Below, in pieces: positions 19,971 to 34,424 of a stretch of 40,345 nt of DNA. Source of the DNA: Candidatus Iainarchaeum sp. Lineage in GTDB: Archaea; Iainarchaeota; Iainarchaeia; Iainarchaeales; JAZDDZ01. The notes under the pieces were generated by a model that was given only the letters and a program-made list of their open reading frames with translations, was not told the origin of the DNA and did no database searches. The position numbers and the translations under genes are program-made. Location of the stretch: positions 1 through 40,345 of the forward strand of contig JAZDDZ010000034.1 of the NCBI GenBank assembly GCA_043809245.1. Direction: 5' to 3'. Position 1 is the first letter of the stretch, and each line of letters starts with the position of its first letter.

Positions 19971-20764
19971 GCGGCTTTCTTCATTTCTGCAAGGTATGCG
20001 CCTAATTCTTCAAGCATCTTTTCACAGTTGCCAATGTTTCTCTCAATGATTTTTTCCACCGCGCTTCCCACAATCGCGCAGTCAGCCCCCGCAGCGCAAA
20101 CCGCCTGAACGTGCTCCTGCTTTGAAATTCCAAAACCAACGCACAAAGGCAGCTTTGTGTGCGGCCTGACCTTTTTTATCAGGGAAACTGTTTCAGTGCC
20201 CAATTCGCTTCTCTCACCCGTAATTCCAAGCAATGAAACAAGGTAAACAAAGCCCGAAGCCTTTGACAAAATTTTTTTCATGCGCTGCGGCGTAATTGTT
20301 GGCGTCACCAAAAAAACCTGGTTCAAGCCCGATTTTTTTGCTGCCTTCAAAAGCGGTTTAGATTCCTCAACCGGCGCATCAGCTGCAAGAACTGCGTCAA
20401 CTCCCGCTTCCTTTGCCTTTGCGTAAAATGCGTCAATTCCGTTTGAGTAAATTAAATTGTAATACACAAGCAGCCCGATTGGAATTTCCGCATCCAGTTT
20501 CCTGATCTCATTAATAAGTTCAAAGCACTTATCTGAATTCATTCCATTCGCCAAAGACCTTGTGTCCGCTGCCTGGATTGTTTTTCCGTCAGCAATCGGG
20601 TCAGAGAAAGGGAAACCCAACTCCAACGCGTCCGCGTGCTTGAGCAATTCCTTCACAATCTCAAGAGATGTCTCATAATCAGGGTCGCCTAAAACAACAA
20701 ACGGCATCAAACCCTTTTCGCCTTTTTTGCGCAGCTCCGCAAAGCGTTTTTCATAGCGGTTCAT
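19955..20764 (-). CDS. trpA: Tryptophan synthase alpha subunit
   Basis: PFVVLGDP, LELGFPFSDPIADGKTIQ.A, LLVYYN, YLVS..GITG, VGFGIS, IVGSA. Confidence 0.97.
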   Translation of the reverse strand: MNRYEKRFAELRKKGEKGLMPFVVLGDPDYETSLEIVKELLKHADALELGFPFSDPIADGKTIQAADTRSLANGMNSDKCFELINEIRKLDAEIPIGLLVYYNLIYSNGIDAFYAKAKEAGVDAVLAADAPVEESKPLLKAAKKSGLNQVFLVTPTITPQRMKKILSKASGFVYLVSLLGITGERSELGTETVSLIKKVRPHTKLPLCVGFGISKQEHVQAVCAAGADCAIVGSAVEKIIERNIGNCEKMLEELGAYLAEMKKAAVYKT

Positions 20765-21501
20765 TTTACACGCCTCCTTCCAAAAAGGGTCATTTTTTTC
20801 TTTACCTTTAGTCTCGGTTTACCCGGGATTGGGGCGGTTTTTTTTATTTTGTGGGCTGGAATTCCATAAAGAATCTCCGTTGTCCTCGGGTTTATTTCCA
20901 AGCGCCTGCCATTCCTGAAAAGATTTTTATATAATACAAAAGGAATGTTTCTAAGGGTGCCGCGTTCCTTATCGTAATGAATTTTTGGTTCCCTCGTTGA
21001 AAATTCACTGCGGAGTTCCGGTATATCTAATGCTCTAACCAAGTTTCCCATCATGTCAGGCAGGCAAGGGCATGAGGCAATCACGGTTTCACCATGCCCT
21101 TCAATCCTTAATTTTTTTTTGTCAAAAGACAAATTTTTACGTTCAATGGCTTCGCGGAACATTTGGGGCGATATATCAAGGAATGAATTCCCTGAGAGCA
21201 CGATAAGCCTTTCTTTCGGGATATGCGTAATTAAGTATTTGAATAACCTGTCCTGCCTCGGGATCCTTTCTTCATTCATTACCAAAAAAAATGCAGTGTT
21301 TGGATTAGAGAACTTGCTTTTCATATCCCTGCCTATTTGATTGGCTATTTCTGCGGCTAATTTTTGTGGATTTATTGAATAGTTTCTAAAATTAAGGGTT
21401 TCATAATATGTTTCACCTTTTTCGCTTTCAGGATCCACAAGCAATCCGAATGCAGGATGCACAATCAATTCAATCTTGTCAATTGGGATCGGCTTGCTCA
21501 A
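20761..21501 (-). CDS. Hypothetical ORFan inserted between trpB and trpA
   Basis: Long open frame. Probable TTG start at 21501 overlaps the trpB TGA (TTGA), and the stop overlaps the trpA ATG (ATGA). AT-richer codons; no family recognised. Confidence 0.65.
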
Positions 21502-22691
21502 ATCTCTTCCCCCGATAATTCTTTTGCCGCGTGGAAAATGTCCTTGTCCCCGCGGCCGCTTAAATTGATTATTATTATGTCGTTTTTTTTGCATTTTTTC
21601 GCGTACTTGACAGCGTAAGCCATTGCGTGCGCTGATTCAAGCGCGGGAATAACGCCTTCCTCTTCGCTTAACAGCTTGAACGCATCAAGCGCTTCCTTGT
21701 CTGTTGCGTAAGTGTATTTCGCCCTTCCCATTTCACGCAGCATTGAGTGCTCAGGCCCAACTGCACTGTAATCCAATCCAGCGCTCACGGAATGCGTGTT
21801 GAAAATCTGACCGAACTTGTCCTGCAAAACATAAGTCAGTGTGCCGTGCAATACGCCTTTCCTTCCGAATTTTGGGTCAGCGAACCTTGCCGCGTGCTTT
21901 CCGCTTTCAATCCCCAAGCCGCCTGCTTCAACTCCAATCAATTCCACGCCTTTGTCATCCAAAAAGCCCTTGAATATTCCAATCGCATTGCTTCCGCCTC
22001 CCACGCATGCAATAACCGCTTTCGGAAGCCTTCCCTCTCTTTGCATTATCTGTTTTCTTGCCTCTTTCCCGATGCAGCTCTGGAAGTATGCAACCATTGA
22101 AGGGTAAGGGTGGGGGCCCAAAACAGAGCCAAGCAAGTAATGCGTTGTCCTGACGCTTGCAGTCCAGTCACGCAGGCATTCGTTGATTGCATCCTTCAAT
22201 GTCTTTGAGCCGGTTGCAACCGGATTAACCTTTGCTCCCTGCAGCCTCATTCTGAAGACATTGGGCTTTTGCCTTTCAATGTCAACCGTGCCCATATAAA
22301 TTTCCGCGTCCAAGCCGAGCTTTGCGCCTGCAGTTGCAACCGCTGTGCCGTGCTGGCCTGCGCCTGTTTCCGCGATGATTCTTTTCTTGCCCATTTTTTT
22401 TGCCAAGAGCGCCTGCCCAAGTGCGTTGTTTATTTTGTGCGCGCCTGTGTGAGCCAAGTCCTCGCGTTTAAGGTAGACTTTGCACCCTAACTTTCTGCTT
22501 AAATTGTCAGAAAATGTCAGCGCTGTTGGCCTTCCCACGTAATCCTTGAGCAGGCCGTCAAGCTCTTTGTTGAATTTCTTGTCTTTCTTGAACTTCAAAA
22601 AAGCGGCTTCAAGCTCCTCTAACGCGGGCATAAGCGTTTCCGGCACGAATACCCCGCCATAGCCTCCGCGAAATTTTCCAAGCGATTTCAT
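21498..22691 (-). CDS. trpB: Tryptophan synthase beta subunit (TrpB1)
   Basis: [66 protein letters not shown]. Confidence 0.98.
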
Positions 22692-25096: not shown

Positions 25097-25603
25097 TCAC
25101 AGCCCTAATTCATCCATAAGCTTTCTTACTTCTTCGATATATAACCTATTAATTAGATTAGTCTTGGCGTGCATGCTGTATTGTTTTTCTGTTTCCAAAA
25201 AAATTCTTTTAACAATCGCATCATAACATTCCCCTGTTTTTCTTGTTATTTCTTCAGATGGTTTGCCTACAATGCGCCTTCCTTCAGTTAGTGCCGAGCT
25301 GTTCTGTGCGGCTGCTTCATGCTTTGATACTTTTTCAAGCAGTAGGTTCCATAAGATCGCCCCGACATTGTTTAGTGCGCTTTTATATGAAGCCATTTTA
25401 AATGGCGCGATTACTCCTGCATTTTTTATAATTTTGTAGGATTCATCAAGCCGTGTTATTTTCTCTTCAATGAGTTTCCTTGCATTTTCTTTGTGTGCAA
25501 TGTTTGCAAACTTTTTCATGGCAATTTTAACGGGAATTGCGCTAATCCTATACGTTAAGTTTGAAGTCATTCTCTTTATGCGGGGCATTATCTTTCCCAT
25601 CAA
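25097..25603 (-). CDS. Hypothetical ORFan inserted between trpG and trpD
   Basis: 168-aa basic, probably helical ORF whose start overlaps the trpG stop (TTGATG). AT-richer codons; no family recognised. Confidence 0.6.
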   Translation of the reverse strand: MMGKIMPRIKRMTSNLTYRISAIPVKIAMKKFANIAHKENARKLIEEKITRLDESYKIIKNAGVIAPFKMASYKSALNNVGAILWNLLLEKVSKHEAAAQNSSALTEGRRIVGKPSEEITRKTGECYDAIVKRIFLETEKQYSMHAKTNLINRLYIEEVRKLMDELGL

Positions 25604-26175
25604 ATCAACCCAATCAAGTTTTCAATTATTTTTCCGCCTTCGGGTGTCATAATGCTTTCCGGGTGGAACTGCACTCCCTCAACAAAGTATTTTTTGTGCC
25701 TTACAGCCATAACAACTCCGCTCTCGGTTTTCGCAGTAACCTTTAACTCGGAAGGAATTTTCAGGCCTGAAAGCGAATGGTAGCGGCCAGCCTGAAAAGG
25801 GTTCTCCAGGCCGTTGAATATATGCTCGTTGTCATGTGAAATCATTGAAGGCTTTCCATGGATTGTTTCAGGGCACTTGCCCACAATTCCCCCAAACGCC
25901 TCAACAATCGCCTGGTGCCCCAAGCACACGCCTAAAATAGGCAGCACGCCCTTGAATTCCCTAATAACTTCAAGGGAAATTCCAGCATCCTTTGGCGCAC
26001 TCGGCCCCGGGGAAATCACTATCAACTTCGGCTTGAATTCCTTAACCACTTCGTAAATTTTTTCCATCGGCGTATTGTTCCTGTAAACCAATACATTGCA
26101 TCCGCGCTTTTCAAATTCATCAACCAAATTGTAGGTGAAAGAGTCAAAGTTGTCAATGAACAAAATGTTTTTCAT
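25600..26175 (-). CDS. trpG: Anthranilate synthase component II (glutamine amidotransferase)
   Basis: IDNFDSFTYNL, ISPGP, GVCLGHQ, RYHSL, GVQFHPES. Confidence 0.96.
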   Translation of the reverse strand: MKNILFIDNFDSFTYNLVDEFEKRGCNVLVYRNNTPMEKIYEVVKEFKPKLIVISPGPSAPKDAGISLEVIREFKGVLPILGVCLGHQAIVEAFGGIVGKCPETIHGKPSMISHDNEHIFNGLENPFQAGRYHSLSGLKIPSELKVTAKTESGVVMAVRHKKYFVEGVQFHPESIMTPEGGKIIENLIGLI

Positions 26176-27797
26176 CGCCTTGCACTCTCCGCCAACTCAA
26201 TTGCCTTAATGCACGCTCGCGCCTTTTTCTCCGATTCAATGAATTCCTTTTCCGGAACCGAGTCAAAAACAATTCCCGCGCCGGCGCGTGTGACTGCTTT
26301 CCCGTTTTTCAGGCGCATGCACCTGATTGCAATGCACGAATCAAAGTCCCCTGCTGGCGTTAAATAGCCAACGCTTCCACCGTAAAATCCGCGCTTTGTT
26401 TTCTCATATTGCCTTATGAGCTTCATTGCCTCAACTTTCGGCGCGCCGGTCAAAGTGCCCATGTTCATTGACGCAAGGTAAGCATGCAATGCATCAAAAC
26501 CTTCCTTTAGCTCGCCTTTCACATTTGAAACAATGTGCTGCACGTGTGAGTATTTTTCCACAATGTAAGGCTTGTCCACGTGCCTTGTTCCCGCTTTGCA
26601 TACTCGTGCTACATCATTCCTTGCCAAATCAACAAGCATTGTGTGCTCAGCCAGTTCCTTTTCATCAAGCTTTAATTCGGTTTCAAACCTTGAATCTAAG
26701 TCTGCGTCAAGCTTTCCATTAACATATCCACGTGGCTTTGTTCCGGCAATAGGCCTGATTTCAACTGTTTTGGCTCCGTTGCCTTCAATGCGGATGAATG
26801 TCTCAGGCGAACTCCCAAGCAATACTCCTGTTGACTGATTTAAGTAAAACATGTAAGGCGAGGGATTAAACCTGCGCAGTTCTGCGTAAATTTCCAATGG
26901 CTCCGCGGAATAATTTGAAGTTATTGTGCGCGAAAGCACTAACTGGAAAACATCGCCGGCAAAAATGTTTTCCTTGGCTTTTTTCACCATTTCAACGAAT
27001 TCCTTTTCGCTTGTGTCAGTGGAAACCCTTGGCTTTGCTTTTTCCGCTTTCCACTCCTGTTTCGCTTCAATTGTTTCAGCCGAATGGAATTTTTTCTCCA
27101 GCCCATCCAGCTTTTTTTCGCATTCATCGGCAATCTCTTTGAATTCTTCGCCGAACACAAGCGCATTTGCTATTAACAGCAGTTTTTTTTGTTTGTGGTC
27201 CAAGGTGAAAAGAGAATCGTGAAAGCATAACTCGTAATCAGGCTCTTTCAGCTCATCGCGCTCGTTTTCCGGCAGTTCCTCAAACTGGTCAATGAAGTCA
27301 TAGGAGATGTTGCCAAATAATCCAGCGAAAGGCGCCAGCGGCTTGTCTTTCGGTGGCTTTAACTTGAATGCAATCGCACGCAAAATATCGGCGTGCGTTT
27401 TAAGCTTCAGCCTTTCTTCCTCGGAAAAACTCCCTTTTTTCTGCGAAAGCCTTCCTGAAATGCTTTTTTTGCCTGCGCTTACTTCATCGCAGAAAGAAAA
27501 ATCATCCGCAATGGAGTCAATGAATTTTTCACCCAGAGAATTCAGCGCGCGAATTTCAAATTCTGCTTTTCTTCCAGTCACCTTAACGCAGGGTTCGCTT
27601 GACCCAATGCTTTTCTCGCCGTACCTTGTTATGATGTCAGCTGACTCCAGGAGCATTGAATTCTCTTTTCTGCCGTAATCCGATAGCTCAGCGAAAAATG
27701 AGAGAGCATCAGGGCTGCCGCTGCCTAATCCAATTTCCCGCACAATTGGCGTGATTGAGCCTTTTCCTGCATTTGCAATTTTTTCTTCTATTTTCAT
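26172..27797 (-). CDS. trpE: Anthranilate synthase component I
   Basis: LLESA, GDVFQLVLSR, NPSPYMF, GSSPE, PIAGTKPRG, KELAEHTMLVDLARND, MNMGTLTGAPK, AGAGIVFDS. Confidence 0.96.
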   Translation of the reverse strand: MKIEEKIANAGKGSITPIVREIGLGSGSPDALSFFAELSDYGRKENSMLLESADIITRYGEKSIGSSEPCVKVTGRKAEFEIRALNSLGEKFIDSIADDFSFCDEVSAGKKSISGRLSQKKGSFSEEERLKLKTHADILRAIAFKLKPPKDKPLAPFAGLFGNISYDFIDQFEELPENERDELKEPDYELCFHDSLFTLDHKQKKLLLIANALVFGEEFKEIADECEKKLDGLEKKFHSAETIEAKQEWKAEKAKPRVSTDTSEKEFVEMVKKAKENIFAGDVFQLVLSRTITSNYSAEPLEIYAELRRFNPSPYMFYLNQSTGVLLGSSPETFIRIEGNGAKTVEIRPIAGTKPRGYVNGKLDADLDSRFETELKLDEKELAEHTMLVDLARNDVARVCKAGTRHVDKPYIVEKYSHVQHIVSNVKGELKEGFDALHAYLASMNMGTLTGAPKVEAMKLIRQYEKTKRGFYGGSVGYLTPAGDFDSCIAIRCMRLKNGKAVTRAGAGIVFDSVPEKEFIESEKKARACIKAIELAESARR

Positions 27798-27823: not shown

Positions 27824-27896
27824 TGGGGTCGCAGGGATTTGAACCCTGATCAGCTGGTCTGGAGCCAGCCGCACTGCCTGGTTATGCTACAACCCC
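27824..27896 (-). tRNA. tRNA-Trp(CCA), intronless, 3' CCA not encoded
   Basis: Cloverleaf: acceptor GGGGTTG/CGACCCC plus A73, D-stem GCAT/GTGC, anticodon arm GCTGG-CTCCAGA-CCAGC, T-arm CAGGG-TTCAAAT-CCCTG. Confidence 0.95.
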
Positions 27897-27919: not shown

Positions 27920-28031
27920 TTAGCGCCAGCGCCACGAATAAGCGCTGAAAAAAGGAACTAAAAAATTTGCCTTGCGGAAGCTAAAAAGACCTAGAAAATC
28001 AGTGAAGCCAAAGTAAATCGCCTGAATTCAT
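27920..28031 (-). promoter_or_regulatory. Putative trp leader/attenuator: uORF MNSGDLLWLH* (28031-27999) plus overlapping +1 frame ending YSWRWR* (stop 27922-27920)
   Basis: ATG lies 30 nt downstream of the TTTAAATA box. Trp codons at 28010, 27934 and 27928, U-tracts, and alternative GC-rich stems cover the WRWR codons. Confidence 0.6.
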
Positions 28032-28083: not shown

Positions 28084-29376
28084 TTAACCGCCGAGCTCTT
28101 CATAGCTCTCGATTTTTCCATCTGGCTTTAGCTTGAAGGCAAAGGTCATTTTGTTGATTAAAACCATTGCCTTCCAGCCGGAATCGGTTTTCTGCATGCT
28201 CGTTATCTTTATTTCCTTGTCCGAGCCGAGCTCTGTTTTTAATGTGAAAAGAAGGTTTAGCTTTGCTGTTCCGTCATCCGACAAGGCAAGCTTGCTTTCC
28301 TGCTGTTTTGCTGCAGGCTCTGGCGCCATAGGCCTTGCCATTGGTTTTGGCGCAATCTGCTGAGGCTGCTGCGACGCTTTCGTTTCCTGCTGTTTTTGCA
28401 CTGGTTTCCAGCTTTCTTCAGGAGGCGCGAAGCCTGAGCCCATTATTTCGCGGTAAATGCCGACCGTCATAAGTGAAAAAATCAGGACGCTGAAAGCTGA
28501 AATAATAAAGCTTGAGATAAACGTTGAAACGTAAACCAAAGCGTAATACATTAACAGCCCGGCGATTTGCTCTGACCCAAGCACGGATATGCTTGAGGCT
28601 CCTGCCACTGAAGGCGCGCTTATTCCGGTTATCGCCGAAAGCGGCAGAAGGATAATCATTTGCAGCACAACCTGGATGATTCCCAAAACAATTGCGCTGA
28701 CTATTCCAACAACAATCATTGCAAGCAGAATTGAAAGCACTTTTCCATCAGTCATTTTCCAAGATGATTTAATTGCGTCAATTATTCCAATGTCCTTATG
28801 CAGGTAAATGACCGGAGACATTGACAGCCTTAAAGAATTGTAAATTACTATTATTCCGTAAACAAGCAAAAGCAGAAAAGCCAGGATAGCCAGAATCCAG
28901 CCAGCGAATAGTGCGATGATTAATATTACAACCGCTGCTGCCAAAACAAGCAGTAACTTCAAATCCAATGCCGAAAAAATTGCGGCAAAAAATTGCACTA
29001 TTACAAGCAAAACAAGCTTCAGGTATTTAACCAATGAAAACTTCGCGGGCTCTATTCCTGCCTTTTTCAAGCCATAAATTGTAACAAGCGCGTTAACGTA
29101 ATAGCTTACCAATGCGAAAACTATTCCAATCAGTGCCGCAAAAGCAATGAAAAGAAACAAATTGCTCAAAAGCACGATAGGGTTGGTTAAAAGCTGCGCC
29201 AAACTTGCCGGATTGCTTATCAGTGAGGAAATTAAATCCCCAAAAAGCAACCAGCCAATGCCGATAATTAGAAGCCATTCAATTGCGGTGATAACCCATA
29301 GGAGCACAATGTACTTCCATGCAGCCCTGTCCTTGAGCCAGGAAAAGGAAAACAGCAGAATCTTTTCGTAGTCCAT
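28084..29376 (-). CDS. Multi-pass hypothetical membrane protein with soluble C-terminal domain
   Basis: Several TM segments, a ..DAIKSSWKMTDGK.. motif typical of this membrane-domain type, a Q/P-rich linker, and its own TATA box (TTTAAATA at 29414-29407). Confidence 0.75.
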   Translation of the reverse strand: MDYEKILLFSFSWLKDRAAWKYIVLLWVITAIEWLLIIGIGWLLFGDLISSLISNPASLAQLLTNPIVLLSNLFLFIAFAALIGIVFALVSYYVNALVTIYGLKKAGIEPAKFSLVKYLKLVLLVIVQFFAAIFSALDLKLLLVLAAAVVILIIALFAGWILAILAFLLLLVYGIIVIYNSLRLSMSPVIYLHKDIGIIDAIKSSWKMTDGKVLSILLAMIVVGIVSAIVLGIIQVVLQMIILLPLSAITGISAPSVAGASSISVLGSEQIAGLLMYYALVYVSTFISSFIISAFSVLIFSLMTVGIYREIMGSGFAPPEESWKPVQKQQETKASQQPQQIAPKPMARPMAPEPAAKQQESKLALSDDGTAKLNLLFTLKTELGSDKEIKITSMQKTDSGWKAMVLINKMTFAFKLKPDGKIESYEELGG

Positions 29377-29442: not shown

Positions 29443-30456
29443 TTACATCTCCCTTCCAACTGCTTCCGCGACTTTCCTTAACTCTGCCATCAGCTTTGCG
29501 AATTCAGAGCCGACAATCTGCTGTGCTGCATCGCACTGTGCCTTTGAGGGGTCTGCGTGAACCTCTATCAGCAGCCCGTCTGCGCCCGCTGCAATTGCGG
29601 CCTTGCTTACATAGGGAACCAAATCCTTTTTTCCCATTGCATGGCTTGGGTCAACAATGACAGGCAAATGCGTGTTCGCTTTCAGCACGGGAATTGCGCC
29701 CAAATCCAGCGTGAACCTTGTGTCTGTTTCAAATGTCCTGATTCCGCGGTAGCAAAGAATTACGTTGTGGTTGCCTTCGCTCATAATGTATTCAGCGGCC
29801 ATCAAAAATTCCTTTATAGTGGAACTCAAACCGTTTTTCAGAATAACCGGCTTGTCAATTTTCCCGACTTCCTTGAGCAATTCAAAGTTCTGCATGTTCC
29901 TTGCGCCGACTCTCACAAGGTCAACGTATTTTGCGACCAATTCAACGTGCCTTGTGTCCATTACCTCTGTTTCAACCGGAAAGCCGAATTTCTCCCTGAC
30001 TTTCTGCAGCATTTTAAGGCCAGGCTCCCCCAAACCCTGAAAATCATAGGGCGATGTTCGCGGCTTGTAAGCCGAGCCGCGGAAAATATCCGCGCCCGCT
30101 TCCTTCACATATTTAGCTGACCTCATAAGCAAGTCCTCGTTCTCTATAGCGCAGGGGCCTGCAATGATTGTAAGCTTGTTTCCGCCGACCTTAACCCCAT
30201 TGATGTCAATGATTGTCGGTTCAGAGTGGAATTCTTTGCTTGCCAACTTGAAAGGCTTGAGTATGGGCATTACTTTTTCAACGCCAGGAAGCGTCTGCAA
30301 ATGCTCTGCATTCAAAACCCTTTCGTCCCCGACAGCGCCAATGATTGTGCGCTCAGTTCCCTTTGAAATGTGCGCCTTCAGGCCCGCGCGCTCTATTTCC
30401 TTCACAACGCCTTTGAGCTCTTTGTCCGAAGCTCCTTTCTTCAAAACAATAATCAT
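29443..30456 (-). CDS. aroF: DAHP synthase type I-beta with N-terminal ACT/ferredoxin-like regulatory domain
   Basis: MIIVLK..G.ERTIIGAVGD, IAGPCAIE, KPRTSPYDFQGLG, GARNMQNF.LL, DPSHA.G. ATG at 30456 follows GGTGGAG. Confidence 0.95.
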   Translation of the reverse strand: MIIVLKKGASDKELKGVVKEIERAGLKAHISKGTERTIIGAVGDERVLNAEHLQTLPGVEKVMPILKPFKLASKEFHSEPTIIDINGVKVGGNKLTIIAGPCAIENEDLLMRSAKYVKEAGADIFRGSAYKPRTSPYDFQGLGEPGLKMLQKVREKFGFPVETEVMDTRHVELVAKYVDLVRVGARNMQNFELLKEVGKIDKPVILKNGLSSTIKEFLMAAEYIMSEGNHNVILCYRGIRTFETDTRFTLDLGAIPVLKANTHLPVIVDPSHAMGKKDLVPYVSKAAIAAGADGLLIEVHADPSKAQCDAAQQIVGSEFAKLMAELRKVAEAVGREM

Positions 30457-30499
30457 ATTCTCCACCATTCCTGTGTCATTAACATCACGCTCCGTTAAT

Positions 30500-31447
30500 T
30501 TATTTCCCCTTAACTATTTTTTCCGCAGCCAAAACAATTGCCTTGGCATTCAACCCGTACTTTTCGTAAAGCTCTTCCTGTGTTCCGCTCTCGCCAAACT
30601 TGTCCCGAACCCCAATGCGCGCAACTTTGCACGGATAATTTTCCGCAACTGTTTCCGCAACCGCGCCCCCTAATCCTCCAATAACGCTGTGGTCTTCAAC
30701 CGAAACAATCGCCCCGAAACTTTTTGCAAGCGCAATAATTTTCTTCTCATCCAATGGCTTTATTGAAGCAATGTTCACGACTTCCGCTGAAATCCCTTTT
30801 TTCTGCAGTTCTTCCGCGGCTTTTAATGACTCTTCCAATACAATTCCTGTGGAAACAATTGCCAAATCATTTCCCTCGCACATTGTTCTCGATTTTCCCA
30901 GTTCAAAAGAATAATTTTTTTCATCAAATAAAAGCCTTGTTTTCGGCCTTGCCATCCGCAAATAAACCGGCCCCTCAATCTCTGCCGCTGCTTTTGTTGC
31001 GGCTTTCGCTTCAGTGAAATCCGCTGGAACAATTACTTTCATGTTCGGCAGCACCCTCATCAATGCAATGTCCTCAAGCGCCTGATGTGTTGCGCCATCC
31101 TCTCCAACGCTTAATCCCGCGTGGCTTCCGACGATTTTCACGTTTGCTTTTGCGTAAGCGACTGAAACCCTAACCTGGTCGTAAACCCTTCCAGTTGCGA
31201 AAACCGCGAAAGTGGATGCAAAGGAAATTTTTCCGCTGTAAGCCAATCCCGCGGCAATGCCAATCATGTTCGCTTCAGCCACGCCCGCGTCAAAAAACCT
31301 TTCAGGAAAACTTTTCTTAAATTTCGCTGAACCGGTGCTTTTGCTCAAGTCAGCGTCAAGCGCAACAATTCTGTTGTTTGCCGCGCCAAGCTCTGCGAGC
31401 GCTTCAGAGTATCCTTCCCTTGTTGCCTTGAGAATCGCTTCAGCCAT
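30500..31447 (-). CDS. tktB: Transketolase C-terminal subunit
   Basis: LDADLSKST, GVAEANM, GEDGATHQALED, GPVYLR, IKPLD, EDHS..GGLG. Confidence 0.93.
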   Translation of the reverse strand: MAEAILKATREGYSEALAELGAANNRIVALDADLSKSTGSAKFKKSFPERFFDAGVAEANMIGIAAGLAYSGKISFASTFAVFATGRVYDQVRVSVAYAKANVKIVGSHAGLSVGEDGATHQALEDIALMRVLPNMKVIVPADFTEAKAATKAAAEIEGPVYLRMARPKTRLLFDEKNYSFELGKSRTMCEGNDLAIVSTGIVLEESLKAAEELQKKGISAEVVNIASIKPLDEKKIIALAKSFGAIVSVEDHSVIGGLGGAVAETVAENYPCKVARIGVRDKFGESGTQEELYEKYGLNAKAIVLAAEKIVKGK

Positions 31448-32266
31448 TTACTCAGCCCCTAATTCATTTAACGCTTTCCCCAGCTCTTCTTTTGAAAGGC
31501 ATTTTCCATGATAGTCTACAATGCATTCCATGAATGAAACGCCTTTTCCCTTCACTGTTTTTGCAATAATCATTGTCGGCTTTCCCTTAAACTGCCTTGC
31601 ATTTTCAAGCGCATCAATTATCTGCGCAAAATTATGCCCGTCAATTTCCAAAACATTCCAGTTGAACGCTTTCCATTTGTCTTTCAGCGGCTCCAGGTCT
31701 ATTACTTCCTCCATTTTTCCGTCAATCTGCATTCGATTGTAATCCGTTATTCCAATCAAATTGTCCAGCTTGTGGTGCCCTGCAAACATTGCAGCCTCCC
31801 ATACCTGTCCTTCCTGGCTTTCACCGCAGCCAAGCATGCAGTAAACCTTTGACTGCTTTTTGTCCATGCGTGCAGCCAAAGCCATTCCAACCGCAACGCT
31901 TAAGCCCTGCCCCAATGAGCCAGTTGTGGCTTCAATGCCAGGGGTTTTCAACCTGTCGGGGTGGCCCTGCAGCATGCCTCCAATTTTGCGCAGGTTCTGC
32001 AATTCTTTTTTTGAAAAATATCCTTGGTCAGCGAGAACAGCGTAAAGCGCGGGAGCACAGTGCCCTTTGCTTAAGACAAACTTGTCCCTTTCATCCAACC
32101 GCGGTTTCTTTGGGTCGTGATTTAAAATTCCGCCATAGTAAAGCGCGACAATCACGTCTGTCGCGGAAAGGCTTCCTCCAGGATGACCGGAATTTGCCGC
32201 AGTTGTCATCCGCAAAATGTCCGCACGGATTCCCTTTGCCTTGGCTTCCAATTGCTTTGCGTCCAT
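31448..32266 (-). CDS. tktA: Transketolase N-terminal subunit
   Basis: SGHPGGSLS, RDKFVLSKGH, LQGHP, TGSLGQGLS, G(C)GE.QEGQVWEA ThDP motif, TVKGKG. Confidence 0.93.
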   Translation of the reverse strand: MDAKQLEAKAKGIRADILRMTTAANSGHPGGSLSATDVIVALYYGGILNHDPKKPRLDERDKFVLSKGHCAPALYAVLADQGYFSKKELQNLRKIGGMLQGHPDRLKTPGIEATTGSLGQGLSVAVGMALAARMDKKQSKVYCMLGCGESQEGQVWEAAMFAGHHKLDNLIGITDYNRMQIDGKMEEVIDLEPLKDKWKAFNWNVLEIDGHNFAQIIDALENARQFKGKPTMIIAKTVKGKGVSFMECIVDYHGKCLSKEELGKALNELGAE

Positions 32267-32272
32267 TTTTTT

Positions 32273-33343
32273 TCACTCGCTTATTGCTTCCTCGGGATAA
32301 GAGCCCAGGACCCTTAAAAACATGCAGTTTTGCTTCATTCGCTCCAATGCCTTTTTCACTTTCTCGTCTTCAATGAAGCCCTGAACATCAACAAAGAACA
32401 CATACTCCCATGTTTTCTTTTTTGTGGGCCTTGACTCAATCTTTGTCATGTTGACATTGAATTCATGGAATGCCTTTAACGCGTTGAACAAAGAGCCTGC
32501 CTCGTGTTTCACGGAGAAAACAAGGCTTGTCTTGTCCTTGCCTGTCCTCTTCATTGACGCCTTCCCGATAACGAAAAAGCGCGTGAAGTTATGCGCGCTG
32601 TCCTCAATGTTTTTTGCAAGAACATTCAAGCCAAAATCCTTTGCAGCCAACTCCGAGGCAATTGCAGCGCTTTTAAGGTAAAGCTTTGCCTCTTCCGCCG
32701 CCTTGGCGGTGCTCGGCGACTCAACGAGTTCAACTGTCGGCAAATTCTTTCCAAGCCAATTCCTGCACTGTGCAAAAGCCTGGGGATGCGAGTAAACCTT
32801 TTTCACTTCGAATAATTCAAACTTTGACAAAAGGCAGTGGTTTATCTCCAGCTGAATCTCCCCTACAATTCCCAAATCAGAGTCAATGAACATGTCAAGC
32901 GTGTGATTCACTGTTCCCTCGGTTGAATTTTCAATCGGGACAACTCCATAGGCGGCTTCTTTTTTTTCAACCGCGTCAAAAACCTCTTTAATGCTGTCCT
33001 TTGCAATGAATTCAGCCATTGAACCGAATTTTTTCAAGGCAGCCATGTGTGTAAAGGTCGTTCGGGGGCCCAAAAAAGCGATTTTCTGCCTTTCCTGCGC
33101 CTGCCTGCTCGCGCTCAAAACCTCGGAGTAAATCGCTTCAACTGCTTCCCTTGGAATCTTTCCGTTCGCGTTTTTAACAAGGCTTTCAAGCACCTCTTTT
33201 TCTCGCGCAGGCACCAAGACTTCCTCGCCTTTTTTTCTCTTCTCTTCGGCTATTTTTTTCGCTATTGCAAGCCTCTCTCCGATAAGTGAAAGCACTTTTG
33301 CGTCAATTTCGTCAATTTTTTTCCTTTCCTCTTCCAAACCCAT
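32273..33343 (-). CDS. pheA: Bifunctional chorismate mutase / prephenate dehydratase (P-protein)
   Basis: LEEERKKIDEID..R, AFLGP..TFT, VVPIENSTEG, SHPQAFAQC, N.TRF, NMTKIESRP ACT domain. ATG at 33343 follows GTGAGTGA. Confidence 0.96.
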   Translation of the reverse strand: MGLEEERKKIDEIDAKVLSLIGERLAIAKKIAEEKRKKGEEVLVPAREKEVLESLVKNANGKIPREAVEAIYSEVLSASRQAQERQKIAFLGPRTTFTHMAALKKFGSMAEFIAKDSIKEVFDAVEKKEAAYGVVPIENSTEGTVNHTLDMFIDSDLGIVGEIQLEINHCLLSKFELFEVKKVYSHPQAFAQCRNWLGKNLPTVELVESPSTAKAAEEAKLYLKSAAIASELAAKDFGLNVLAKNIEDSAHNFTRFFVIGKASMKRTGKDKTSLVFSVKHEAGSLFNALKAFHEFNVNMTKIESRPTKKKTWEYVFFVDVQGFIEDEKVKKALERMKQNCMFLRVLGSYPEEAISE

Positions 33344-33367
33344 TTCAATCACTCACTTTTTTTTATT

Positions 33368-34015
33368 TCATTTCTTCGGAACCTTTGCCCAGTCATCCAA
33401 AAATCTCTTTATACCCGCATCAGTCAGTGAATGCCTGAACATTTTTGAAAGAACGTCAAACGGAACAGTCGCGATGTGCGCCCCCATTTTCGCTGACTCC
33501 ACGACATGAATCGGGTGCCTTACGCTTGCAACAATCACTTCAGTTGCATAACCATAATTCCTGAATATTTCCATTATTTCCTTTATGAGCGCCAAGCCAT
33601 TCTCTCCCTGGTCGTCTAATCTTCCAACAAAAGGGCTCACATAGCTTGCGCCTGCCTTTGCCGCGAGCAAAGCCTGGTTTGCTGAGAAAACAAGCGTCAC
33701 ATTGGTTTTGATTCCCTCTTTTGCGAGCTTTTTCACTGCCTTCAATCCTTCGGCTGTCATTGGAATTTTCACGACAACGTTTTTGTGAATCTTCGCAAGT
33801 TGTTCGGCTTCTTTCACCATTTCCTCTGCTTTTTCGCTGACTGCTTCCGCGCTTATCGGGCCATCAACAATTGAGCAAATCTCCTTGACGACTTCCTCAA
33901 ATTTCCTGCCCTCTTTTGCCACAAGCGTGGGATTCGTTGTAACGCCGTCAATTACCCCCCATTCATTTGCCTTTTTTATTTCCTCTATATTCGCTGTATC
34001 CAAAAAAATTTTCAT
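33368..34015 (-). CDS. tal: Transaldolase (TalC/FSA family)
   Basis: [51 protein letters not shown]. Confidence 0.95.
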
Positions 34016-34037
34016 ATCTATACCCCTTTTGTTTTCG

Positions 34038-34069
34038 GCAACCCGCCCAAAAAAGCCTTGAGCAGTTGC
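34038..34069 (-). promoter_or_regulatory. Leader hairpin directly after the aromatic leader peptide stop
   Basis: GCAAC-U-GCUCAA...UUGGGC-(G)G-GUUGC stem enclosing a U6 run, 22 nt upstream of the tal ATG. Confidence 0.65.
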
Positions 34070-34165
34070 TTATTGAAAAAAGTAAGCAAAATAGTAATAA
34101 AAAGCCTTATCTGAGGCAGTCTCTTCCGTCCAAAGATAATCCCTGCCACAAACAACCGCTTTCAT
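34070..34165 (-). CDS. Putative aromatic-amino-acid leader peptide MKAVVCGRDYLWTEETASDKAFYYYFAYFFQ
   Basis: 31-aa uORF about 25 nt downstream of a TATA box (34200-34191). Eight of the last ten residues are Phe or Tyr. It lies upstream of tal-pheA-tkt-aroF. Confidence 0.75.
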   Translation of the reverse strand: MKAVVCGRDYLWTEETASDKAFYYYFAYFFQ

Positions 34166-34199
34166 GCAATCAAATTTGTAAGGCAAAAGGTTTAAATAA

Positions 34200-34424
34200 A
34201 TGATTAATTCACTTAATCAATTGGCAGGCGATGTTTTGGGCGCACTGGATGAAGCGAATGATTTGCTGCTTTCCGCAGAAAAAACAGTCAGGACAGTTGA
34301 GCGCGCAGAAGGCACTGCCAAAAAAGTTTCAGGAATGGCTGGAAAAGGCTGGCTTTACATTCTAATCGCTGCAGCCGTCCTTCTGATTCTCGCTGCGCTG
34401 TTTGTTTTGACCGGCTCGTTTTGA
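34200..34424 (+). CDS. Small hypothetical protein with C-terminal TM anchor
   Basis: 74 aa, coiled N-terminal part and hydrophobic C-terminus. Confidence 0.55.
   Translation: MINSLNQLAGDVLGALDEANDLLLSAEKTVRTVERAEGTAKKVSGMAGKGWLYILIAAAVLLILAALFVLTGSF

Follow-up and report, generated by a model that had tools for sequence, protein, structure and literature searches.

Leader-peptide attenuation is a textbook mechanism of gene regulation in bacteria. In attenuators of the trpL, pheL and hisL type, a short open reading frame (ORF) at the 5' end carries a run of codons for the end product near its stop codon, a hairpin is positioned so that the location of the ribosome decides the fold, and biosynthetic genes follow, a pheA among them. 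Here we describe an element with these features in an archaeon, a short upstream ORF (uORF) rich in phenylalanine and tyrosine codons that heads the tal-pheA-tkt-DAHP synthase genes of Candidatus Iainarchaeum sp. It lies on the minus strand of contig JAZDDZ010000034.1 (assembly GCA_043809245.1), whose 40,345 nucleotides are referred to throughout as the window. The comparative data strongly support a leader peptide, and the element as a whole would represent ribosome-mediated attenuation in an archaeal, leaderless form. It differs from the bacterial attenuators in its host, an archaeon with a TATA-type promoter whose genome codes for a TATA-binding protein (TBP), in its presumably leaderless start without a Shine-Dalgarno (SD) motif, in its mixed Phe, Tyr and Trp codons, in having no match in Rfam and in heading an operon that includes transaldolase and transketolase. 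Furthermore, no terminator made of a hairpin plus a U-run precedes the first gene in the window; in four relatives, a hairpin, an A-run and six to nine U residues are found.

Leaderless leader ORFs have been described in bacteria. In mycobacteria, ribosomes stalled on leaderless polycysteine small ORFs are described as freeing the sequestered ribosome-binding site of the next gene (Canestrari et al., 10.1101/834739). As outlined in that report, these are short ORFs forming the first cistron of a leaderless transcript, with consecutive codons for the amino acid under control and several loci per genome, and in these respects the element described here would resemble them. This element, however, is archaeal and carries aromatic instead of Cys codons, and its sequestering duplex is only predicted and is not general over the relatives. 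Leaderless leader peptides have also been predicted in Deinococcus deserti, on transcripts starting with the AUG and with codons that match the downstream synthetase or biosynthesis gene (PMC4007540); there, the host is bacterial and classical terminators are predicted to be used, according to the same source. In archaea, aromatic amino acid genes are reported to be regulated by TrpY in Methanothermobacter and by Tar (TK0271) in Thermococcus (PMC6737238). These regulators act on the same pathways but are DNA-binding proteins at promoters, whereas the candidate sensor described here is the ribosome on a leader ORF. A search of open-access full text, a scope outside which most subscription journals fall, returned no archaeal case of a leader peptide, of attenuation or of uORF stalling. 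The matches on archaeal attenuation consisted of bacterial cases and general statements, such as an introductory sentence in PMC10219788.

Anatomy of the leader region

The uORF (MKAVVCGRDYLWTEETASDKAFYYYFAYFFQ, 31 codons followed by TAA) extends over positions 34070-34165, with its ATG at 34165-34163 and its stop codon at 34072-34070; this and all following window features are on the minus strand unless stated otherwise. A TATA-like box (TTTATTTAAA, 34191-34200) ends 25 nt 5' of the ATG, a distance that implies a leaderless or near-leaderless transcript. No SD-like motif was found between the box and the ATG in the window. The deduced peptide terminates in AFYYYFAYFFQ, and 8 of its last 12 residues are Phe or Tyr. 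Codons 22 to 30 (FYYYFAYFF, 34076-34102) form an aromatic cluster that we presume to be the stall site, and the sole Trp codon (codon 12, 34130-34132) lies outside this C-terminal cluster. The first base past the stop codon is the 5' end of a hairpin of 13 bp with one bulge (GCAACUGCUCAAG/UUUGGGC-GGGUUGC, 34038-34069), whose loop and 3' arm are spanned by a run of six U residues (U6). A purine-rich spacer of 22 nt follows (CGAAAACAAAAGGGGTATAGAT, 34016-34037); it harbors an SD-like GGGGT at 34022-34026 and leads to the ATG of tal at 34015. Its predicted partners are the Tyr/Phe codons of the uORF or, once the 5' arm of the hairpin is masked, the U6 run. Rfam covariance models run against positions 33800-34400 on both strands gave no match at an E value of ≤1. 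A preliminary description of this locus had listed the unannotated 31-residue uORF with its single Trp, the TATA box, the hairpin with U6 and the genes downstream, and it proved correct in every detail. On the opposite strand, the first base of a divergent ORF of 74 aa with a hydrophobic C terminus (34200-34424, plus strand) coincides with the start of the leader's TATA-like box; being near-palindromic, this box may serve both directions.

The leader is exceptional within its genome. Among 1695 intergenic small ORFs with an ATG start (8 to 60 codons), it has the highest count of Phe, Tyr and Trp (F/Y/W) in the last 12 residues, namely 8, and no other contains four or more Tyr within 10 residues. 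Such F-rich small ORFs do arise by chance, 13 of the 1695 having at least 6 F/Y/W in their last 12 residues. Genome-wide, 5 of 13,348 small ORFs reach 8; five other top-scoring small ORFs were inspected (three with a score of 8 or 9), and all were located within longer ORFs. When the 300 nt upstream of tal were dinucleotide shuffled, a count of 8 was reached in 0 of 300 shuffles.

Occurrence across the order

The phylum Iainarchaeota (DPANN) comprises 215 genomes, of which 196, all of them small (0.5 to 1.5 Mb), belong to the order of the window. We searched these 196 genomes and found tal in 46 and pheA matches in 65. Full-length orthologs of the pheA that combines chorismate mutase and prephenate dehydratase (CM-PDT) numbered 32 at an E value of ≤1e-108. 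All 32 loci and every tal locus were retrieved with their flanks, and an upstream ATG ORF was scored as a leader if its last 12 residues included 6 or more F/Y/W. Leaders were present at 23 of the 32 full-length pheA loci, in nine families; these are the window and 22 other operons. Ten loci share the layout tal-pheA-tktN-tktC, in which the transketolase gene is split in two, and nine of them go on to DAHP synthase; the leader lies upstream of tal in eight of the ten. pheA is not preceded by tal at the other 22 loci, 15 of which have the leader upstream of pheA. There, pheA is followed by tkt and DAHP synthase (14 loci), by DAHP synthase only (5 loci) or by neither within the retrieved stretch (3 loci). 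Nine loci have no leader. At seven of them, the first gene comes directly after another ORF on the same strand, at a distance of no more than ~80 nt, so that it would be internal to an operon and not the head of a transcription unit.

The same scoring was applied to several sets of control loci. No leader was found at the 36 tal loci of the order without pheA, where the maximum count was 4, at 77 bacterial pheA loci (1500 nt scanned each) or at 17 loci encoding prephenate dehydratase only (PDT-only). A scan of metagenome contigs with a tal alignment gave 80 loci, mostly from other lineages and none with pheA downstream, of which a single one scored positive. Dinucleotide-shuffled upstream regions did so in ~0.9% of the cases. 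The bacterial pheA loci stem from a contig scan with a pheA alignment, which also returned three archaeal loci that were already among those of the order, and a phylum-wide pheA search yielded two further weak matches. These two weak matches were left out of the counts, as were five distant full-length pheA matches in the order (35 to 38% identity), 8 of the 26 PDT-only loci and three loci at contig ends (L284, L361 and L154). Overall, the distribution strongly supports the view that the uORF is a conserved leader peptide whose occurrence is linked to operons for aromatic amino acids.

Shared design and selection on the codons

The leader DNA cannot be aligned between the nine families, but the design is nonetheless common to all of them. 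The 23 leaders are 28 to 41 codons long, and in the 22 relatives 6 to 9 of the last 12 residues are F/Y/W. Codons for both Phe and Tyr occur in all 23, those for Trp in 21, mostly inside the cluster, and the cluster ends 0 or 1 residue from the stop in every case. A TATA-like hexamer ends 21 to 29 nt before the ATG in 21 leaders; one of the other two is at a contig end, and the second has this distance at 17 nt. Read by eye, an SD-like motif precedes the leader ATG in only 2 of 23 cases, whereas the first structural genes have one. The predicted folds place the start of a hairpin between -2 and +5 nt relative to the end of the stop codon in 23 of 23. Spacers between leader and first gene measure 42 to 192 nt and are often purine rich. 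By hand count, a run of at least five T occurs in 11 of the 23 spacers, and U-runs are thus not a conserved feature.

We then compared the leaders pairwise within families and counted substitutions. In the last nine codons, 27 changes at aromatic codons were synonymous (TTT/TTC or TAT/TAC), 12 replaced one aromatic residue with another and 3 replaced an aromatic residue with a non-aromatic one. Hence, 39 of the 42 changes involving aromatic codons were synonymous or aromatic to aromatic. Codons 2 to 15, in contrast, accumulated 188 nonsynonymous and 21 synonymous changes. Within families, the C-terminal motifs are conserved, as exemplified by FYFYFWFFK and YFNSFFYFFW. Selection on these sequences apparently keeps the reading frame and the aromatic identity of the codons while the remaining peptide drifts. 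A sensing leader should behave in this way, whereas an accidental T-rich terminator or a structured peptide should not. Frame conservation and synonymous Phe/Tyr variation upstream of orthologous genes were what the preliminary description had suggested looking for, and both are borne out. The possibility that it had named as fatal to the idea, namely a T-rich by-product without a conserved frame, is at odds with the conserved frame.

RNAalifold analysis of three subgroups gave the stop-abutting hairpin as the consensus structure, with double-sided compensatory changes in 5 of 23, 8 of 11 and 4 of 19 predicted pairs, respectively. For the subgroup of the window, an outer helix was predicted as well, in which the U-run of the last Phe codons pairs with an A-run 3' of the hairpin.

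Proposed mechanism and read-out

We consider it quite likely that the best explanation for these features is a leader peptide that senses charged aromatic tRNAs through ribosome stalling. The transcript would be leaderless, with the 31-codon leader peptide gene at its 5' end and the aromatic gene cluster behind it, and the ribosome would initiate at the AUG at the very 5' terminus. A shortage of charged tRNA-Phe, tRNA-Tyr or tRNA-Trp would make it stall in the F/Y-rich cluster, which is separated from the stop by a single codon. The conserved hairpin starts with the base that follows the stop codon, and for this reason the position of the ribosome, in the cluster or at the stop, would decide the fold of the RNA just downstream. 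As the geometry suggests, a ribosome can decode the stop only after opening the 5' arm of the hairpin, while a stall early in the cluster would leave the hairpin intact. The resulting fold would set the expression of tal, pheA, tkt and DAHP synthase. The data show the anatomy, its conservation and its association with aromatic operons; translation of the leader, stalling and read-out we infer.

For the window, the best-fitting read-out would be translational. Two U-rich stretches, one formed by the Tyr/Phe codons and one by the U6 run within the hairpin, can pair with the purines of the tal SD. Folding of the free RNA is predicted to join the Tyr/Phe codons to AAAAGGGGUAUAGAUA, a stretch that includes the tal SD. 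Masking of the 5' arm of the hairpin is predicted to bring the U6 run into a duplex with these purines (-10.3 kcal/mol). Only a stall on the last Phe codons would remove both pairings, since the ribosome would hide the codons and the hairpin would lock the U6 run. In a model that places a ribosome footprint on each codon in turn, the probability that the tal SD is unpaired was 0.24 in the free RNA, 0.17 with the ribosome on N-terminal codons, 0.39 to 0.46 on codons 26 to 28, 0.70 to 0.71 when the A site held codon Phe29 or Phe30, and 0.20 to 0.25 on Gln31 or the stop. This profile corresponds to the behavior described for the mycobacterial poly-Cys small ORFs. For the window, these thermodynamic predictions suggest that unmasking of the SD fits slightly better than termination.

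Given that a sensor exists, a translational read-out comes first among the candidates, although it falls short of being probable; premature termination at oligo-U or RNA processing is a tentative option ranking closely behind it, and any other read-out would be unlikely. Coupling by frameshifting was also considered: only ~5 of the 23 leaders have a +1 frame that continues from the cluster to the first gene without a stop, the closely related pair L040 and L041 differ in this respect, and this candidate was rejected. Sequestration of the SD by the aromatic codons was likewise dropped as a general read-out, as it was not supported over the 23 leaders. We read the data as a conserved sensor whose expression platform would differ between lineages.

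Several results weigh against the sensing leader or the SD-based read-out and have to be set beside the evidence above. All genomes are metagenome-assembled genomes of related organisms, and the counts are therefore not independent. Two loci with a free intergenic region, L046 and L263, have no ATG leader, the latter having a 245-nt spacer without any such ORF. The stability of the window hairpin is modest: taken alone, it has a folding energy of -14.7 kcal/mol, which corresponds to a z score of -2.14 and is matched by 6 of 200 shuffled sequences. Over the 23 leaders, the mean accessibility of the SD was 0.43 in the free RNA, 0.47 with the ribosome in the cluster and 0.45 at the stop, with a gain of at least 0.15 in only 5. 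Pairing of the aromatic segment with the translation initiation region was no better for cognate than for foreign combinations (-8.9 versus -9.6 kcal/mol; permutation P value of 0.91). In chimeras designed to reveal coevolution of the aromatic segment with the RNA downstream, the segment of the window paired with its own downstream RNA worse than did 21 of 22 foreign segments, and the cognate segment ranked first at only 5 of 23 loci (L040, L041, L258, L259 and L267), the window not being one of them. These swap tests may lack discriminating power, as any run of Phe codons is by nature complementary to a purine-rich SD region.

Alternative explanations

The alternative closest to our proposal keeps the stalling sensor and is compatible with it, being a variant in which the main read-out in the window is premature transcription termination by the archaeal RNA polymerase at oligo-U tracts within the leader or beyond it, unless a stalled ribosome blocks the terminator fold. 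For the window we find this rather doubtful. Its U6 run is inside the hairpin, and no U-run lies between the hairpin and tal, so that the terminator-type attenuator envisaged in the preliminary description does not readily match the layout and a translational read-out fits at least as well; moreover, runs of at least five T are found in just 11 of the 23 spacers, and in some layouts the direction of the effect would be hard to square with induction upon starvation. Some relatives nevertheless look different. At L252 and L255, the U-run of the Phe codons is predicted to pair with a run of six to eight A 3' of the hairpin, and this stem ends 1 to 3 nt before a run of eight or nine U; the fold resembles a terminator that has the regulatory codons as its 5' strand and that a stalled ribosome would disable. 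L253 and L257 share the A-run and a run of six or seven U, and the outer helix between Phe codons and A-run given by RNAalifold for the subgroup of the window points the same way. Termination would also be in line with the T5-T6 runs found at 14 of 18 loci after the uORF that precedes tRNA-Trp, and a kinetic decision would suit a ribosome that is only briefly at each position.

The remaining explanations dispense with the sensing of charged tRNA. If the ORF encoded a functional aromatic micropeptide, for instance a membrane or enzyme-binding one, its cluster would be kept for the sake of the peptide, and the conserved C-terminal motifs within families agree with this. Yet the N-terminal two-thirds evolve almost freely (the 188 nonsynonymous versus 21 synonymous changes), the aromatic residues interchange, the length varies from 28 to 41, the ORF is found only at the head of pheA-containing operons, the stop-abutting hairpin covaries, and Cys and Trp uORFs of similar layout precede their own pathways; we regard a micropeptide as improbable. 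Arrest peptides act at the very C terminus beside the stop codon, and the location of the cluster next to the stop would fit an arrest of the TnaC or ErmCL style, in which the ribosome is halted by the aromatic nascent chain, possibly aided by a free amino acid, and the supply of charged tRNA is not the signal. The cluster, however, is only loosely constrained beyond aromaticity, and a biosynthetic operon needs induction under scarcity, which codon starvation supplies directly, so that such an arrest appears no more probable than the micropeptide. Finally, the Phe/Tyr codons could be a T-rich terminator or an AT-rich spacer that happens to read as an ORF without any function. Phe codons are T rich, the leaders favor TTT (87 of 125 Phe codons) and TAT (50 of 66 Tyr codons), and chance F-rich ORFs do occur elsewhere in the genome, as noted above. 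The comparative data contradict this reading, since the frame, the distance from TATA box to start and the stop right after the cluster are kept at 23 loci of nine families, TTT/TTC and TAT/TAC swap with the amino acid unchanged, TGG is present in 21 of 23 leaders, and controls and shuffles are nearly empty; a mere by-product is thus very improbable.

Implications

If the proposed sensing of charged aromatic tRNAs is correct, archaeal ribosomes would act as amino acid sensors on leaderless mRNAs. The supply of erythrose-4-phosphate, the precursor from the pentose-phosphate pathway, would be tied to the demand for aromatic amino acids, and the locus would offer a compact natural system for studying transcription-translation coupling in archaea. 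The succession of a TATA box, an ATG ~25 nt further on, a codon run, a stop and a hairpin would also provide a signature for regulated operons in genomes of uncultured DPANN archaea.

Downstream genes and related elements

The window is one contig of a 1.48-Mb genome in 55 contigs, the sole member of its family. The first structural gene, tal (33368-34015), encodes a protein of the fructose-6-phosphate aldolase/transaldolase family (PF00923; TIGR00875, 343 bits). As judged by domain matches, it is followed by pheA with chorismate mutase, prephenate dehydratase and ACT domains (32273-33352), the N-terminal (tktN, 31448-32266) and C-terminal (tktC, 30500-31447) parts of the split transketolase and a DAHP synthase with an FXD domain and DAHP_synth_1 (29443-30468). 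Beyond these genes, the same strand carries an ORF of no known family, tRNA-Trp, trpE, trpG, trpD, a trpC-trpF fusion, trpB and trpA, and then an aroA-aroK fusion, aroB, aroD, aroE, aroC and tyrA. The codirectional cluster (12562-34165, ~21.6 kb) thus comprises nearly the whole aromatic amino acid pathway. Two of its genes are fusions, EPSP synthase-shikimate kinase and trpC-trpF, and three of its ORFs have no Pfam family (28084-29376, 430 aa; 25097-25603, 168 aa; 20761-21594, 277 aa). The 430-aa ORF also has no NCBIfam family and gave no tblastn match in the operons of the relatives. Outside the phylum, the nearest relatives of pheA are bacterial (Nitrospirota and Aquificota, ~50% identity), which hints that the cluster was acquired from bacteria.

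Within the cluster, tRNA-Trp (27824-27896), the only one detected in the genome, is separated by 26 nt from trpE (26172-27797). A short uORF with a single Trp codon, MNSGDLLWLH (27999-28031), lies 28 nt past a TATA-like box, and T5-T6 runs come after it. Of 27 evaluable trpE loci, 16 are preceded by similar uORFs, marked by a D/G-x-L-W motif or RRD-x-LW, and 17 of 30 loci have tRNA-Trp immediately 5' of trpE. Conservation of the core nucleotides of the Trp uORF is unusually high, third codon positions included, so that the Trp-codon element could be an RNA motif, either in addition to being an ORF or in its place. Control of the Trp branch appears to be separate, and this tempers the earlier proposal that the F/Y leader alone integrates all three aromatic amino acids: the proposal remains plausible in that Phe and Tyr codons are present in 23 and Trp codons in 21 of the 23 leaders, but a separate Trp-codon uORF precedes tRNA-Trp and trpE. 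At L046 (complete genome G016), an F/Y/W-rich frame reaches to 5 nt before tal (no ATG, GTG or TTG start; ~300 nt upstream) and is preceded by two interleaved inverted repeats. Upstream of tRNA-Trp, this locus has repeated hairpins containing GTAAACGG where the Trp uORF would be.

A poly-Cys leader (MSAQNNKACNCCCCCCC, mixed TGC and TGT codons) is found in the same genome as the window (G000), on contig C4 (39213-39266, plus strand; 1214-1267 of L084), and came to light in the scan of intergenic small ORFs. Together with the Trp-codon uORF, it shows the design recurring within one genome, which speaks for the stalling sensor. It has a TATA-like box upstream, and a GC hairpin abuts its stop, followed by A6 and T6 runs and an SD. 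The gene that comes next encodes a serine O-acetyltransferase of 219 aa (cysE; NF041874, 204 bits, above the cutoff). Among 24 cysE loci in the order, such a leader was found at one, that of this genome. A tRNA-Cys gene lies ~125 nt 3' of the cysE-like gene (C4:40100-40172, plus strand) and is followed by a phage-type integrase. Two tRNA genes, those for Trp and Cys, thus adjoin biosynthetic genes for their own amino acid.

On balance, we lean toward the view that ribosome-sensed leader peptides serve Iainarchaeota-like DPANN archaea as a general regulatory device, with F/Y/W leaders for the common and Phe branch, the Trp uORF-tRNA-Trp-trpE arrangement and the poly-Cys leader ahead of cysE. 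They would be the first amino-acid-sensing attenuators in archaea and would combine leaderless mRNAs and a stop-abutting hairpin with lineage-specific read-outs instead of bacterial-type terminators.

Finally, an ORF of 25 aa (MPDKKIKSAKKELKEEKAGCCCCCD) with its own SD is located directly 5' of a heavy-metal P-type ATPase gene in the same genome (contig C46:12527-12604, minus strand; L085). The ATPase has an HMA-like N terminus, and the small ORF could encode a metal-binding peptide or another leader.

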